A stretch of DNA of 40,844 nucleotides from a virus (Duplodnaviria > Heunggongvirae > Uroviricota > Caudoviricetes): the IMG/VR virus record IMGVR_UViG_3300025916_000008, positions 1 through 40,844 of that record. One strand, 5' to 3'. Made by a program: the position numbers and the translations under genes. The notes beneath the pieces are model-generated. The model made no database searches and was not told the origin of the DNA. It saw nothing but the letters and a program-made list of their open reading frames with translations. Numbering within the stretch: position 1 is the first letter of the stretch; every line of letters begins with the position of its first letter. Positions 2,856 through 26,212 of this stretch are shown in pieces.

Positions 2856-3080
2856 ATGACCTTCCAGCCCTGGCTCGGGAAACTCCCCGGCGAGCCGTCT
2901 GGCGTCGGCCACCGCATCCTGATCAAGACCAGCTACCGCGCCGTGCACGACGGGAAGCTGCGGTGCGAGAGCACCGACCCGGAGGAGGTCGTCGCTCACG
3001 CGGCCGAGGGCGATGCCTTCGAGGTACTGAACTACTACGCGGTCACCGAGGGCTGGCAGCCGTGGACACCGGGGACCTGA
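2856..3080 (+). CDS. Small hypothetical protein (leaderless)
   Basis: MTFQPWLGKLPGEPSG...; CACAAT -10 hexamer 6 nt before ATG 2856; real 3' part of shadow ORF 630..3080. Confidence 0.6.
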   Translation: MTFQPWLGKLPGEPSGVGHRILIKTSYRAVHDGKLRCESTDPEEVVAHAAEGDAFEVLNYYAVTEGWQPWTPGT

Positions 3081-3097
3081 GCACCTGGGAAGGCCGC

Positions 3098-3466
3098 ATG
3101 GCCGCCGCAGCCGCCGCGCGCCGGGCTGCCGCCGAGAGGAAGCGGGAAGAGGCCGAGGAAGCGCGGAGGCAGGAGGTCATCGCCGCCGGCTTCGACCCGG
3201 ACATGCCGGAAGGCCATGAAGCGCACCACTGGCACGCCCGGGGGAACGGGTACGAGTGCTCCTGCGGCCAGTTGCACGGCGGTATCTGGTCGTTCGTCCC
3301 TGACGCGCGCTGGGGGTCCGATGACCCGGCCGAGGTAGCCCAGGTGAGGCGGGAAGAAACCGACTGGCTGGCGTGGATCTCCTGCTACATCTGCGGCGCG
3401 CCCGGGGTTACGGCTCAGGACGTGACGTGGCCGCCGCGACGGATGGAGAGACAATCGGTGACATGA
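3098..3466 (+). CDS. Hypothetical protein with Cys/His motifs
   Basis: ATG 3098 after GGGAAGG; HHW..GYECSCG and CYICG motifs; ATGA overlap with next gene. Confidence 0.55.
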   Translation: MAAAAAARRAAAERKREEAEEARRQEVIAAGFDPDMPEGHEAHHWHARGNGYECSCGQLHGGIWSFVPDARWGSDDPAEVAQVRREETDWLAWISCYICGAPGVTAQDVTWPPRRMERQSVT

Positions 3467-22623: not shown

Positions 22624-24726
22624 GTGGCCAACCACCCAGGAGCGGCAGCGCTCACCGGCAGCGGGACTATCACGCCGCACGGCACGGCCACCCGCCGTAA
22701 GTCCGCCGCCCTGTCCGGCTCGGGCACCTTCACCGCCCACGAGAAGAACGCATACCCGGTGGCGGCCCTGTCGGGATCGGGGAGCTTCACCGCGAACGGG
22801 CGGCGTCAGATCCCGGTGACGTTCCAGGCGGGCGCTTCGCTGTCGGTGAGCGCCCGGGTCATCAAGAACGCCACCGCCGCGCTGGCGGCTGCCCCGGTGC
22901 TCACCGCCACCGGGTTCGTGCCGATGATGGCCGCGCGCCCCGTGCTGGCCGCCACGGCGAAGGTGACCGAGGTGGCCGCCGCCGCCTTCACTGCGCCGGG
23001 CACCCTGACGGCGGCCACGTCGCAGTCGGCCGCGCACCTGTCGGCCGCGCCCGCGCTGCTGGCCCCCGGGCGGATGGCCGCCGCCCGCCTGCTGGCGGGC
23101 ACCTCGATGTCGGTGTCCGGCACGTACTTCATGCCGGGCGCTGCGGCGCTGTTCGCCGGCCCTGTCCTGTCGGCTGCGGCGAGGGTCACCGAGCTTCCCT
23201 CCGTTCACCTGAGCGCGCCCGCCTCGATGTCCGTCCCGTCGTCCCTGCGGGTGCAGGCGTCGGCTGCCTTCCACGGCGGGGCGGCCCTGTCGGCGGCCCC
23301 GTTCACCGCCTCCGCCCACCTGTCGGCCGCGCCCGCGCTGAGCGCGGCTGGCACCGGGACCGACTTCGCGCACGCGGCGCTGAGCGCACCGGGTTCCGTC
23401 ACCTTCCACGGACAGGTCACGCGCAAGCCCAGGGCGGCCCTCAGCGGCTCCGGGACGATCCACTCGCGTGGTACGACCGTCAAGTTCGCCAGCGCCGCCC
23501 TGAGGGCTTCTGCGGCCCTCCGGGCGGCAGGGGTGCGCGGCGTCGCGGCGCACTCCGCGCTGACGGCGGCGGCGCACCTCTCAGCGGGCGCGCTCCGCTC
23601 GGCGGCGGGCCGGGCGGCGCTGTCCGCCCAGGTAAGCGCCTTCGTCTCGGCCCAGGTGACACCTGGCGTGCGCCTGAGCGCCGCCGCCGTGCTGTCCGGC
23701 TCGGCGGTCCTCAGCCGGACGGTGCGGTCCACGCTGTCCAGCGGGGCGAGGCTCACCGCGACCGCGCACGGCACGGCGTTCCCGCGCGCCGCCTTCACCG
23801 CCCCCGGTGCCCTTGCCGCCGTGCCGCTCGGGGTGGTCAAGGGCGGCGAGGCGATGGCCGCCAGCCCGTCGCTGCGGGCGGCGGCCAGCACCAGGCCGAG
23901 GCTGCCGTTCCCGCAGCCGCCGGGCAGGCAGCAGGCCGCCTGGGAGCGGGACGTCCAGCGCTTCGCGATCGTCCAGGAGCGACAGCGGCACGCCCAGGCG
24001 CTTTGGCAGTACGGCGAGCTGGTGATGTTCGCCCTGATGTGGAAGCCCGAGGACATCACCTCTGGGCTGGCGCGACGGTGCACCCGCTGCTACGTCCCCG
24101 CCCAGGTGATCAGCGACCTGCCCCCGGAGACGCCGCCGCCGCTGGGATGGCCGACGGCATCCACGGAAGCTCAGATCAGCGCCGCCTACGGGCAGGGCAC
24201 CCAGTTCCGCTGCCCGCTGTGCTTCGGCACCCAGGTGATCGCGGCCGGGACGGTGAAGGTACCCGGCGTACGGGCGCTGCTGGTGCGCCCGGCGATCCTC
24301 ACCGACACCGACCAGAACCAGCAGCGCACCGCGCGGGGCGTCGTCAACACCGGGAGCGTGCAGGTGCAGTCGACGCCTGACTTCCGGGTGCACACCCTGG
24401 ACTACCTGTTCCGGTCAGACGGGCGGCGCTACCAGCTCTCGGTGCCGTCCCGGACGACGCTGCGCACCGGGTTCGGCTCCCCGTGGCAGGACGCGGCCGG
24501 GATCAGCTACAACGTCTCGAACGCCAGCCTGGAGGACCCGGACGCCTCGGTGGCGTACGCCATCGCCCCGCTGGCCGCCGAGCTGGCGCAGGTGCTCGGC
24601 ACCTACACCAGGGTCCCGGCTGACTACGCCTGGGTCGAGCAGGTGAACGGGCCGCTGATCCCCGGCGAGGACCCGCCGCCCGCCGCGTACGGGCTGTATC
24701 AGCCGCCGGCCTCAGCGGGCGTCTGA
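22624..24726 (+). CDS. Virion protein: Ala-rich repeat N-terminus fused to CxxC-containing head-completion-like domain
   Basis: ~420 aa of AALSA/AAP repeats, then RCTRC...CPLCFGT domain; function inferred. Confidence 0.6.
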   Translation: MANHPGAAALTGSGTITPHGTATRRKSAALSGSGTFTAHEKNAYPVAALSGSGSFTANGRRQIPVTFQAGASLSVSARVIKNATAALAAAPVLTATGFVPMMAARPVLAATAKVTEVAAAAFTAPGTLTAATSQSAAHLSAAPALLAPGRMAAARLLAGTSMSVSGTYFMPGAAALFAGPVLSAAARVTELPSVHLSAPASMSVPSSLRVQASAAFHGGAALSAAPFTASAHLSAAPALSAAGTGTDFAHAALSAPGSVTFHGQVTRKPRAALSGSGTIHSRGTTVKFASAALRASAALRAAGVRGVAAHSALTAAAHLSAGALRSAAGRAALSAQVSAFVSAQVTPGVRLSAAAVLSGSAVLSRTVRSTLSSGARLTATAHGTAFPRAAFTAPGALAAVPLGVVKGGEAMAASPSLRAAASTRPRLPFPQPPGRQQAAWERDVQRFAIVQERQRHAQALWQYGELVMFALMWKPEDITSGLARRCTRCYVPAQVISDLPPETPPPLGWPTASTEAQISAAYGQGTQFRCPLCFGTQVIAAGTVKVPGVRALLVRPAILTDTDQNQQRTARGVVNTGSVQVQSTPDFRVHTLDYLFRSDGRRYQLSVPSRTTLRTGFGSPWQDAAGISYNVSNASLEDPDASVAYAIAPLAAELAQVLGTYTRVPADYAWVEQVNGPLIPGEDPPPAAYGLYQPPASAGV

Positions 24727-24932
24727 CCGAAGTCGTCGAACTCGCCGTTCATCACGCCGCCCAGGAAGTCGCGCCACTCGCCCGGGGTGTAGGTGAGGAC
24801 GCCCTGGGCGTGGTCCTGGCCGTTGCGGACCTGGGCGCTCCCGTCGGAGAGAAGCTGGACCTCGACGGAGTTGCCGGCGGCGGAGAGGCTCGACTTGAAC
24901 CATGGCTTACTGACAGTAACGTCATGTGACAT
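24699..24932 (-). CDS. DUF397 (BldB/AbaA-like) family protein
   Basis: WFKSS.S...NSVEV...VRN...G.LTYTP.EW.DFL.GV..GEF matches the DUF397 pattern; TAGAAT 7 nt before ATG. Confidence 0.85.
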   Translation of the reverse strand: MSHDVTVSKPWFKSSLSAAGNSVEVQLLSDGSAQVRNGQDHAQGVLTYTPGEWRDFLGGVMNGEFDDFGQTPAEAGG

Positions 24933-25042
24933 ATCAGTGATTCTATGCAATAATCCTCGCAAGCACCCGGATTTGGCGGCCCATTCCGGGTGCTTTTCTA
25001 ATCCCTGTGCACCTCAATCGCATCGCCTGGTACGTTATGTCC

Positions 25043-25188
25043 CGAGCACAAGCTGAGGTTCAGGCTGAGGCTGACACGCTCCCACATTGACCGGAAGGCC
25101 CTGGTTCGACTCCAGGTCCCGGCACCCGCGCCGGGATAGCTCAGGGAGAGCACCCGGAGGGAGCCTCAGGATCAGGATGTGACGCTCG
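25043..25188 (+). ncRNA. YrlA-like Y RNA #1 (permuted tRNA core on long stem)
   Basis: T arm 25100-25116, closed acceptor hairpin TCCCGGC/GCCGGGA, D arm 25139-25151, long bulged terminal stem; TGG-TACGTT -10 at ~25028-25036. Confidence 0.8.
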
Positions 25189-25196
25189 AAGCTGAA

Positions 25197-25364
25197 GCTC
25201 GCGCCAGCACGTGCAGATCCACCTGGTGGCCGCAGACGACAAGAAGCTGCGGGTTCGAGTCCCGCCCGGGGCGCTCCGTGCCCCGGTGGTCCAAGGGCAA
25301 GACGTCTTCCGTTCAGGATGACGGCCACCCGACAGCCGCTGCACGCGGACCTGGTGCCAGGAGC
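25197..25364 (+). ncRNA. YrlA-like Y RNA #2
   Basis: T arm 25249-25265, closed acceptor hairpin CCGGGGC/GCCCCGG, D arm GTC/GAC, stems GGTGGCCG/CGGCCACC, CGTGCAG/CTGCACG, GCGCCAG/CTGGTGC. Confidence 0.8.
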
Positions 25365-25453
25365 GAACCTGATAAGTCCGTAATCCTGATTACGTCGCCC
25401 CGGCGTACACGGCAAAGGTGCGCCGGGGCACCAAAGCACCCACGGGGAGAGGC

Positions 25454-26212
25454 ATGACGCAGACGCTCGGGCAGGTAGTGGCGGCGGAGGCAGCGGCGCG
25501 GGCCGATGCCAACAAGCGCGGCGGGACGCTGCACAAGCAGGGCCAGAAGACCGACCTCTTCGAGGGGTTCGACACCACGTACTCGCCGTTCGCCGAGGCG
25601 GACGACGGGAGCGACTCCCGGGCGCTCCAGCGCCCCCCGGAGGGCAAGCGCGTCCAGCTCGTCGCCGAGGACCTGCTGCGCGAGTTCATGAACGAGATGC
25701 GCAGCGCCATCGACCTGGCCGCCGTCAAGGACGAGGCCAACTGCCGGGCGAGGGCCGACGTGATCACGCCCGGCGGCCTGGTCCTGCTGACCGCCGTCCC
25801 GGCCACCCACCTGCTGCACATGGAGAAGGTGCTGGAAGACTTCGCGACCTTCATCGCCAAGCTCCCGGTCCGCGACCCGGCCATCGACTGGACCTACAGC
25901 CCCGACGACCGGATGGCCCACTCCCCGGCGACCTTCACCAACAGCGAGGAGGTCCGGACGAAGGCGCTGGTTATCGTCGCGCCGACGCAGTACCAGGCCG
26001 GCCAGGGGACCACCTACCAGGAGCGCGTCGCCGTCGGCCGCCGCACCACCGTCCGGCACACCGGGGCGCTGTCGGTGCAGCGCAAGCGCGACCTGGAGCG
26101 GCGCGTCGCCGAGCTGAAGGTCGCCTTCAAGCAGGCCCGGGAGGCGGCGAACCGCGTGGAGGCCGCCGACGTCCGGGAGGCCGACGAGCTGTTCGGCTAT
26201 ATCCTGGGATAG
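25454..26212 (+). CDS. Conserved actinobacterial/phage helical protein of unknown function
   Basis: L.Q..A.E...K...L..G...TY.P...P.E.K.VQ..AED...KLPV.D...W...TGAL...R...L..RV..LK.A.K.AREAAN...LFGYI recalls a widespread Streptomyces hypothetical family. Confidence 0.8.
   Translation: MTQTLGQVVAAEAAARADANKRGGTLHKQGQKTDLFEGFDTTYSPFAEADDGSDSRALQRPPEGKRVQLVAEDLLREFMNEMRSAIDLAAVKDEANCRARADVITPGGLVLLTAVPATHLLHMEKVLEDFATFIAKLPVRDPAIDWTYSPDDRMAHSPATFTNSEEVRTKALVIVAPTQYQAGQGTTYQERVAVGRRTTVRHTGALSVQRKRDLERRVAELKVAFKQAREAANRVEAADVREADELFGYILG

Follow-up and report, generated by a model that had tools for sequence, protein, structure and literature searches.

Circularly permuted tRNA-like RNA domains beside the DUF7873 gene of phages

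Permuted tRNA-like RNAs and the element under study

The closest described counterparts of the element studied here are the bacterial Y RNAs YrlA and YrlB of Mycobacterium smegmatis and of Bxz1-type phages (Rfam RF02553), which carry a T arm, a closed acceptor-like stem and a D arm on a stem formed by the RNA ends. In M. smegmatis, YrlA and YrlB are encoded in tandem and made as one precursor, and YrlA, with its 7-bp acceptor stem, is cleaved by RNase P and tailed by the CCA-adding enzyme (PMC4201824). The 5' motif GNCGAAN0-1G of YrlA is thought to contact Rsr, and Ro60 is reported in just ∼5% of the bacterial genomes sequenced (Chen et al., 2014; PMC4201824); the YrlA system used for comparison is also described by Wang et al. 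(2018; 10.1101/312249). As cited in the latter work, a tRNA-shaped non-coding RNA named b7a-tRNA was proposed with a non-Ro60 protein (Burroughs and Aravind, 2016). In this work we analysed a stretch of 40,844 nt (the window), the first 40.8 kb of the complete-rated 162,409-bp IMG/VR virus record IMGVR_UViG_3300025916_000008 (70% G+C), in which a first-pass annotation had labelled positions 25043-25188 (+ strand) as a YrlA-like Y RNA. The fold of this element is real and is maintained by selection. The element is one of a family of RNAs that adjoin the DUF7873 gene, in the orientation of the gene, in phages of actinobacteria, Vibrio, Rhizobium and cyanobacteria that are not related to one another; its conserved neighbour is DUF7873, not Ro.

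Fold and conservation of domain 1

Domain 1 (25043..25188, + strand), as delimited by covariance model matches and covariation, consists of a closing helix, a rod with a six-base period and a permuted tRNA-like head. Each segment picked out in the first-pass annotation was found in place. Its tRNA core, which is circularly permuted and has a 7-bp acceptor stem closed by a loop, was recovered alike by minimum free energy (MFE) folding, RNAalifold, covariation and a manual parse, and MFE and RNAalifold bore out the long bulged rod that continues from the anticodon-like stem and replaces the anticodon loop. As a single sequence, 25043-25188 folded by MFE into the T arm, acceptor hairpin, D arm, CCGG/CCGG stem and rod with a z-score of -1.35; because this value is so modest, one sequence by itself is little proof and the comparative evidence decides.

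Relatives were gathered through the neighbouring protein and an exact 21-mer, which gave one viral contig at ∼93% DNA identity, two further viral contigs and ten metagenome contigs. RNAalifold on an unfitted MAFFT alignment of seven relatives returned the closing helix, the CUGA/UCAG helices, the inner rod, the anticodon-like stem, the T arm and the acceptor stem. From the window's high-GC clade only, we built R1, a covariance model of 146 positions and 40 pairs. When 11 homologues were aligned with it, 91.7% of the cells paired and both sides had changed in 22 of the 40 pairs; none of 500 shuffles attained any of the five measures used, and sliding the 3' partners by 1-3 columns left pairing at 31-47%. 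Because this alignment is fitted to R1, it favours the model; the independent checks are the parse by hand and RNAalifold on the unfitted alignment. By manual parse, at least 4 of the 5 T-stem pairs form in all 10 homologues that bear the core. The D arm is only 62.5% paired in the R1 alignment because of a one-column misalignment inherited from the seed; parsed manually, the D stem has 4/4 pairs in seven high-GC homologues, and in three cultured-phage homologues, for which a script gave 3/4, inspection by eye indicated a GCC/GGC stem of 3 bp. Searched against the complete 162-kb genome, R1 matched domain 1 and the core of a second domain only. Full-length matches to domain 1, with E from 5e-7 to 5e-9, were obtained in the phages Mimi (42.4 bits), NiceHouse (39.8 bits) and GodonK (34.8 bits), and ordinary tandem-tRNA junctions score at most 18 bits. 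No open reading frame (ORF) overlapping the RNA has the G+C content at third codon positions (GC3) above 0.9 that is typical of real genes in this phage, which together with the covarying fold identifies 25043-25188 as a non-coding RNA domain.

The closing helix P1 pairs CGAGCA (25043-25048) with CGCTCG (25183-25188) in the RNAalifold consensus. The inner-end pair of this GAGCR/YGCUC helix (A25048 opposite C25183) is A-U in NiceHouse and the related loci L022 and L023, G-C in Mimi, L017-L021 and L011, and A.C in the window and GodonK. Inside it, the 5' arm of the rod (25053..25076, + strand) is a run of the hexamers CTGAGG, TTCAGG, CTGAGG and CTGACA in exact 6-nt phase, starting at 25053, 25059, 25065 and 25071. 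The 3' arm (25159..25182, + strand; MFE and RNAalifold) reads GGGAGC, then two TCAGGA hexamers in 6-nt phase (starting at 25166 and 25172) and TGTGA (25178-25182), after which C25183 opens the 3' strand of the closing helix. Hexamer density in the rod is 13-30 times the genome level. The hexamers yield 4-bp CUGA/UCAG helices parted by GG/GA internal loops; those at 25065-25068/25172-25175 and 25071-25074/25166-25169 appear in both MFE and RNAalifold structures, with 86% of cells paired. For the first two hexamers, the RNAalifold output also contains an alternative small local hairpin (25053-25063). Low-GC phages have CUCAAA/CUAAAA at the equivalent rod positions. The inner rod helix joins GCTCCC (25078-25083) to GGGAGC (25159-25164), with 96% of cells paired and four of its six pairs changed on both sides. 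It is followed, at the place of the anticodon loop, by a 7-nt asymmetric bulge, ACATTGA (25084..25090, + strand), that faces 1 nt in the MFE structure and whose CAT is kept in high-GC relatives.

The anticodon-like stem pairs CCGG (25091-25094, the 3'-type strand) with CCGG (25154-25157); its 4 bp are 100% paired and three of them have changed on both sides. Across lineages the stem reads CCGG/CCGG, GCGAG/CUCGC, GCGGG/UCCGC, GCUGU/ACGGC, ACCGU/ACGGU or CUCUG/CAGAG, and the rod extends it by 35-40 nt on each side. A variable loop, AAGGC (25095-25099, + strand), leads to the T arm, CCTGG-TTCGACT-CCAGG (25100..25116, + strand), whose five pairs are 100% paired, three of them changed on both sides; the T-loop consensus UUCRANY is kept in 9/10 homologues. 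The acceptor hairpin (25117..25136, + strand) is formed by TCCCGGC/GCCGGGA, 7 bp, around the loop ACCCGC (25124-25129). Both sides have changed in 5/7 of its pairs, and all seven pairs form in each of the 10 core-bearing homologues, with U-A, C-G and G-C exchanges. Most relatives have an acceptor loop that begins with ACC(C/A); the four low-GC actinophage domain-1 loops all start with ACCA, and the window's loop starts with ACCC. Next come the linker U8-A9 (TA, 25137-25138), the D arm GCTC-AGGGA-GAGC (25139-25151) and AC, the whole segment spanning 25137..25153 (+ strand). The window has the equivalents of the tRNA tertiary nucleotides U8, A14, G15, G18-G19 and A21, the UUCGA T-loop and the Levitt pair G15:C48, which becomes A15:U48 in cultured phages; loci L011 and L017 depart from this set, either in the D loop or at U55.

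A second head and linkage to the DUF7873 gene

A predicted extended -10 promoter, TGG-TACGTT (25028..25036, + strand), precedes domain 1. It had been proposed from the single sequence, and comparison strengthened the call: nine lineages with differing upstream genes share an invariant TGGTAnnnT, which is an extended -10 of the TAnnnT type of actinobacteria, 6-15 nt 5' of the CGAGC start. Its position predicts an RNA 5' end at ∼25043, the exact start of the closing helix. Downstream lies domain 2 (25209..25345, + strand), a second permuted tRNA-like head with its T arm at 25249-25265 and acceptor hairpin at 25266-25286. The 20 nt that separate domain 1 from the outer helix of domain 2 (25209-25215/25339-25345) contain no second promoter; in this helix, GTGCAG/CTGCAC covaries with ACGCAG/CTGCGT and GAACAG/CTGTTC. 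The two T arms start 149 nt apart (25100 and 25249), and 143-155 nt apart in most loci. Small hairpins follow domain 2, ahead of a terminal hairpin, GCCCCGGCG...CGCCGGGGC (25397..25429, + strand), which has no U tract and shows compensatory changes in L022 and L023. This is the last conserved element of the RNA, ending 24 nt 5' of the DUF7873 start codon. In GodonK, Mimi and NiceHouse, where the RNA is 3' of the gene, the terminal hairpin is likewise found at the RNA 3' end, which makes it part of the RNA and not of the leader of the gene. On balance, we take these elements to belong to one non-coding RNA of ∼390 nt (25043 to ∼25430, + strand) that holds two tRNA-shaped heads; judging from the sequence, transcription probably reads through into the DUF7873 gene.

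Records of cultured phages that contain DUF7873 homologues, with identities of 27-34%, numbered 24. In NiceHouse, Mimi and GodonK the gene lies within a tRNA array and is followed by an unannotated gap of 400-530 nt, which contains, after a start of GAGCR, a rod rich in repeats, a permuted head whose 7-bp acceptor stem has a loop starting ACCA, a second head ∼151-154 nt further on and then a hairpin with the loop CGGAUAU. Unannotated gaps of ∼340-690 nt with at least one permuted head lie 3' of DUF7873 in these three phages and in Fryberger, Vibrio K479, Rhizobium RHph_Y1_11 and Pseudanabaena PA-SR01, the last four having one or two heads each. A Microcoleus phage gave one doubtful candidate head, in which 5/7 acceptor positions pair. 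Heads beside DUF7873 were thus found in at least seven of eight cultured phage lineages.

The linkage was also measured in an unselected sample of 80 further IMG/VR DUF7873 loci, with a strict descriptor that combines a T arm with a UUCRA-type loop and a perfect 7-bp hairpin abutting it. The descriptor was satisfied on the gene strand in 75/80 loci (∼94%), compared with 7/80 on the opposite strand and 9/80 after shuffling. Most heads (113 of 128) lay 3' of the DUF7873 gene. The placement of the RNA before the gene is the one oddity of the window's clade. Two heads were present in at least 36 of the 80 loci, at a median spacing of ∼150 nt. With R1, 56 matches reached E≤0.001, every one of them on the strand of the gene, and the model was matched over its full length in ∼42/80 loci, mostly starting 9-63 nt past the DUF7873 stop codon. 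The acceptor loop begins with NCCA in 38/128 heads, compared with ∼2% by chance. Because the RNA may stand on either side of the gene and the terminal hairpin moves with the RNA, we concluded that the element is not a 5'-leader switch. To our knowledge, tRNA mimicry of the Y-RNA kind has so far been known only with Ro60 as its partner; in these cultured and uncultured loci the same permuted tRNA design has a different constant neighbour, whose fold is unmatched among solved structures.

Small coding sequence (CDS) features are annotated on or beside the RNA in GenBank records: GodonK gene 151 (L015:3994-4122) and Vibrio K479 gene 0060 (L026:2309-2464), both on the opposite strand, and Fryberger gene 123 (L027:2139-2252). 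These three calls are probably spurious. In complete phage genomes the RNA is either unannotated or hidden beneath such calls. HEARO RNAs are a guide RNA family of the IS605/OMEGA type, and one of them (129 bits; L029:2378-2587) occupies the gap after DUF7873 in Microcoleus phage My-WqHQDG, apparently inserted next to or into the tRNA-mimic RNA.

Relation to YrlA, candidate function and rival explanations

The YrlA label stood in part. In favour of it are the topology of the head, the tRNA tertiary nucleotides including the Levitt switch from G15:C48 to A15:U48, the 7-bp acceptor stem, in which M. smegmatis YrlA is the closest YrlA type, and the layout of two tandem RNAs that adjoin the partner gene and share its strand. 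That the element is a member of the YrlA/Ro60 system was not borne out. The Rfam YrlA model gave no match to 25043-25188 at E≤10, and 29.3 bits (25226-25331) on the sister domain 2, against a gathering score of 69. In Bxz1, our positive control, TROVE was found and the YrlA match directly upstream of it reached just 32.5 bits; falling below the Rfam threshold is therefore uninformative, and the absence of a model match, which the first-pass annotation had taken as refuting, discriminates poorly. Bxz1 has Ro and YrlA and lacks DUF7873. The first-pass annotation saw no Ro gene in the window, and TROVE is absent from the complete 162-kb phage as well, as it is from three related fragments and from seven complete cultured phage genomes that carry DUF7873, at least six of which have a two-headed RNA alongside; neither RtcB nor a CCA-adding enzyme gene was found in the window phage. 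The motif GNCGAAN0-1G has no strict match in the window, which reads CCCGAGCA; the region is GGCGAGCA in L022/L023, GUUGAGC in low-GC actinophages and GCCGAGAG in Bxz1 YrlA, and a relaxed motif is nearly matched in some relatives. Unlike YrlA and YrlB, both units of the window have full tRNA-like heads, ∼150 nt apart, together with a rod of phased hexamers and a third, terminal hairpin.

TROVE is missing from 17 of the 24 large viral genomes with DUF7873 and encoded in the other seven. In five of these seven TROVE-encoding jumbo phages, the ones compared by coordinates, TROVE lies 58-227 kb from the DUF7873 locus. One of these, a 341-kb IMG/VR phage (the record of L047), has TROVE followed by YrlA-like matches of 42.9 and 33.1 bits (L121:2774-2837 and 3075-3184) and three tRNAs, ∼58 kb from its DUF7873 locus, so that a Ro system and the DUF7873 RNA occur in one genome. 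The distance between TROVE and DUF7873, with separate YrlA-like RNAs in one case, suggests two separate systems. The RNA varies the YrlA design and has another constant partner.

Annotation tools for tRNA miss the element, as the first-pass annotation had anticipated: neither ARAGORN nor the Rfam tRNA model called it, and at gathering score the Rfam search returned only tRNAs. A sub-threshold Rfam 'tRNA' of 20.6 bits at 25130-25273, the sole Rfam match at E≤10 to overlap 25043-25188, has an 89-nt insert and runs from the 5' half of head 1 into the 3' half of head 2, and its acceptor strands are mismatched; it is an artefact of the two tandem permuted units and not a split tRNA. A functional or permuted tRNA gene was rejected because no 7-nt anticodon loop closes the stem, which is continued by the rod instead. 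A recent origin from the phage's own 38 typed tRNAs was rejected too, the best likeness extending to 30/63 positions with no close match. As summarized in 10.1101/312249, b7a-tRNA sets a precedent for tRNA mimics that are independent of Ro and belong to conflict or repair loci; by that account it has the shape of an ordinary tRNA and the context of Band-7 and RtcB, whereas the RNA described here is permuted, two-headed and without RtcB. This context was rejected for the window phage because RtcB is absent and its Band-7 gene, at 72.5 kb, is 47 kb from the RNA. No Band-7 gene was found in Mimi, GodonK or Fryberger. In NiceHouse, and only there, a gene for a Band-7-like membrane protein (gene 121, L013:4374-5246) directly follows the RNA and one tRNA-Lys gene.

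The whole is best explained, in a reading to which we incline on balance, by a Ro-independent RNA-protein particle made of the ∼390-nt RNA and DUF7873 and displaying tRNA mimics. The RNA would be transcribed from the host-type extended -10 promoter and would act with DUF7873 as one particle, the hexamer track and closing helix serving as the putative protein-binding part. The two tRNA-shaped heads may engage a reader of the tRNA elbow and acceptor end, for which RNase P, the CCA-adding enzyme, tRNA modification enzymes and a tRNA-directed host defence are candidates. By analogy with M. smegmatis YrlA, RNase P could open the acceptor loop just before G25130 and leave an ACC end that can be completed to CCA; the frequency of NCCA among the heads, ACCA in the low-GC loops and ACCC in the window lend indirect support to this step. 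A more specific version, which we put forward tentatively, is that copies of DUF7873 bind the six-base repeats and that the RNA is a ruler spacing two anticodon-less tRNA mimics, the particle capturing or hiding from a host reader of the tRNA elbow and acceptor, such as a tRNA-directed defence nuclease or a processing enzyme.

Several observations weigh against such a particle. The DUF7873 protein is mildly acidic (isoelectric point 6.0 in the window, 5.4-6.4 across homologues), structure searches revealed no recognisable RNA-binding fold and no solved relative, and the protein is linked to the RNA by synteny only. The domain-1 head is absent, with closing helix and rod kept, in the close lineage of L012 and L023-25 and in the Vibrio and Rhizobium phages, and some acceptor loops lack ACC (ACGC in L018/L019, ACAACGG in L040, GCGCAT in L043). 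Moreover, the 5' end CCGAGC (GGCGAGC in L022/L023) resembles GCCGAGAG of Bxz1 YrlA, so that binding of host Rsr is possible. The protein itself had no match in PHROGs, and in the ESM Atlas it matched DUF7873 clusters only. An AlphaFold2 model (mean predicted local distance difference test score 81.8) had Cas7 chains as its best Foldseek hits (E 0.012, template modelling score 0.14) and no fold match in the PDB. The literature searched contained no mention of DUF7873, and Rfam 15 has no family for the RNA linked to it.

The resemblance of the 5' end to that of Bxz1 YrlA is part of the case for a true YrlA-type Y RNA that works with host Ro60/Rsr, the phage RNAs retargeting or blocking the Rsr-PNPase machine and DUF7873 being a mere neighbour. 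This explanation would account for the permuted topology and tandem layout shared with YrlA/YrlB of M. smegmatis and Bxz1 (PMC4201824), for an Rfam YrlA match that covers the full sister domain at a score near that of the Bxz1 RNA, for the R1 match to Bxz1 YrlA (20.2 bits, E 2e-4) and for the presence of TROVE somewhere in 7/24 large genomes. We nevertheless consider it unlikely. TROVE is missing from the window phage and from the seven complete cultured genomes, and where present it is far from the RNA, once with YrlA-like RNAs of its own; the Rsr motif is not strictly matched in the window and in the low-GC actinophages; the linkage to DUF7873 is ∼94%; and the hosts of the phages with the RNA belong to at least four phyla, whereas Ro60 is reported in just ∼5% of bacterial genomes (PMC4201824). 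We judge equally improbable a cis-acting element for processing or stability of the DUF7873 transcript, whose heads would be RNase P/RNase Z punctuation or nuclease-resistant caps with no function in trans. The tRNAs that punctuate phage tRNA-array transcripts and the mascRNA that defines the MALAT1 3' end are models for such an element, and weak matches to the mascRNA model were obtained. The RNA is on the same strand as the gene and tens of bases from it, the pair lies within tRNA arrays in several phages, and 7-bp acceptor stems with NCCA loops would suit recognition by RNase P and by the CCA-adding enzyme. Against this explanation, the RNA stands either upstream of the gene, as here, or downstream of it, as for most heads in the sample, and a ∼390-nt RNA with two heads at a fixed 150 nt, a phased rod and a terminal hairpin exceeds what a processing site needs; headless versions that consist of the rod alone are conserved as well.

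Two further explanations carry far less weight. A permuted two-piece transfer-messenger RNA (tmRNA) has the same order of parts, with a T arm, 3' acceptor strand, NCCA, spacer, 5' acceptor strand and D-like arm and a long helix for the anticodon arm, and a weak beta-tmRNA match (25.3 bits) was obtained on the Vibrio phage head; a tmRNA-like or otherwise chargeable RNA would have its loop opened, be aminoacylated and enter the ribosome or bind EF-Tu. G3.U70 with A73 and CCA is the alanine identity set of tRNA-Ala and tmRNA, and the GodonK domain-1 acceptor (L015:3873-3893) has all three, its CCA being encoded; this set is missing from the other nine homologues. The acceptor stem of the window begins G1-C72, C2-G71, C3-G70, and G3.U70 occurs in 1/10 homologues. 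The window RNA further differs from two-piece tmRNA in its canonical D arm and in the lack of a tag reading frame and of pseudoknots, and ARAGORN, which calls permuted tmRNAs, reported none. We regard this identity as very improbable. It is scarcely credible that the element is a decaying, functionless remnant of duplicated or rearranged tRNA genes: the phage does have 39 tRNA genes 10 kb away, but their likeness to the element is low, the promoter is conserved, and every stem shows compensatory changes, which extend to homologues with 31% identity in the neighbour protein.

If it is true that protein and RNA cooperate, the preferred particle of RNA and DUF7873 would be a new class of phage RNA-protein particle. 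The RNA is found in or near tRNA arrays. Such arrays are regions that phages use in conflicts over host translation and with tRNA-cleaving defences. Direct testing is possible in GodonK, Fryberger, Mimi and NiceHouse, four cultured actinophages whose hosts are tractable, and for annotation the covariance model and the simple descriptor offer a means to detect the RNA.

Genome setting of the window locus

The permuted RNA occupies a gap of ∼490-530 nt between a DUF397 gene on the - strand and the DUF7873 gene on the + strand, the size of the gap depending on which DUF397 start is taken. DUF397 is a family typical of Streptomyces-type actinomycetes; the gene spans 24699-24926 or 24699-24962 (- strand; Pfam, 51.6 bits). 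The DUF7873 gene (25454..26212, + strand) encodes 252 amino acids and matches Pfam PF25283 at 187 bits, with a GC3 of 0.95. The 39 tRNA genes called by ARAGORN lie at 6.5-15.8 kb, ∼10 kb from the RNA. Neither a blastn search against 50,697 phage records nor two scans of bacterial genome contigs, one with the DUF7873 alignment and one with DUF397, gave a match. On its other side the DUF397 gene converges on a 700-amino-acid ORF (22624-24726) without a family match, with an overlap of 28 bp. Between the DUF397 start and the RNA promoter there is an AT-rich stretch (24926-25003), kept in relatives that share the DUF397 neighbour, with a sigma-70-like promoter match at 24926-24954 (+ strand) and, directly 3' of it, a 10-bp hairpin followed by TTTTCT (∼24962-25003). 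The stretch may encode a tiny transcript, act as an insulating terminator or form the leader of DUF397.

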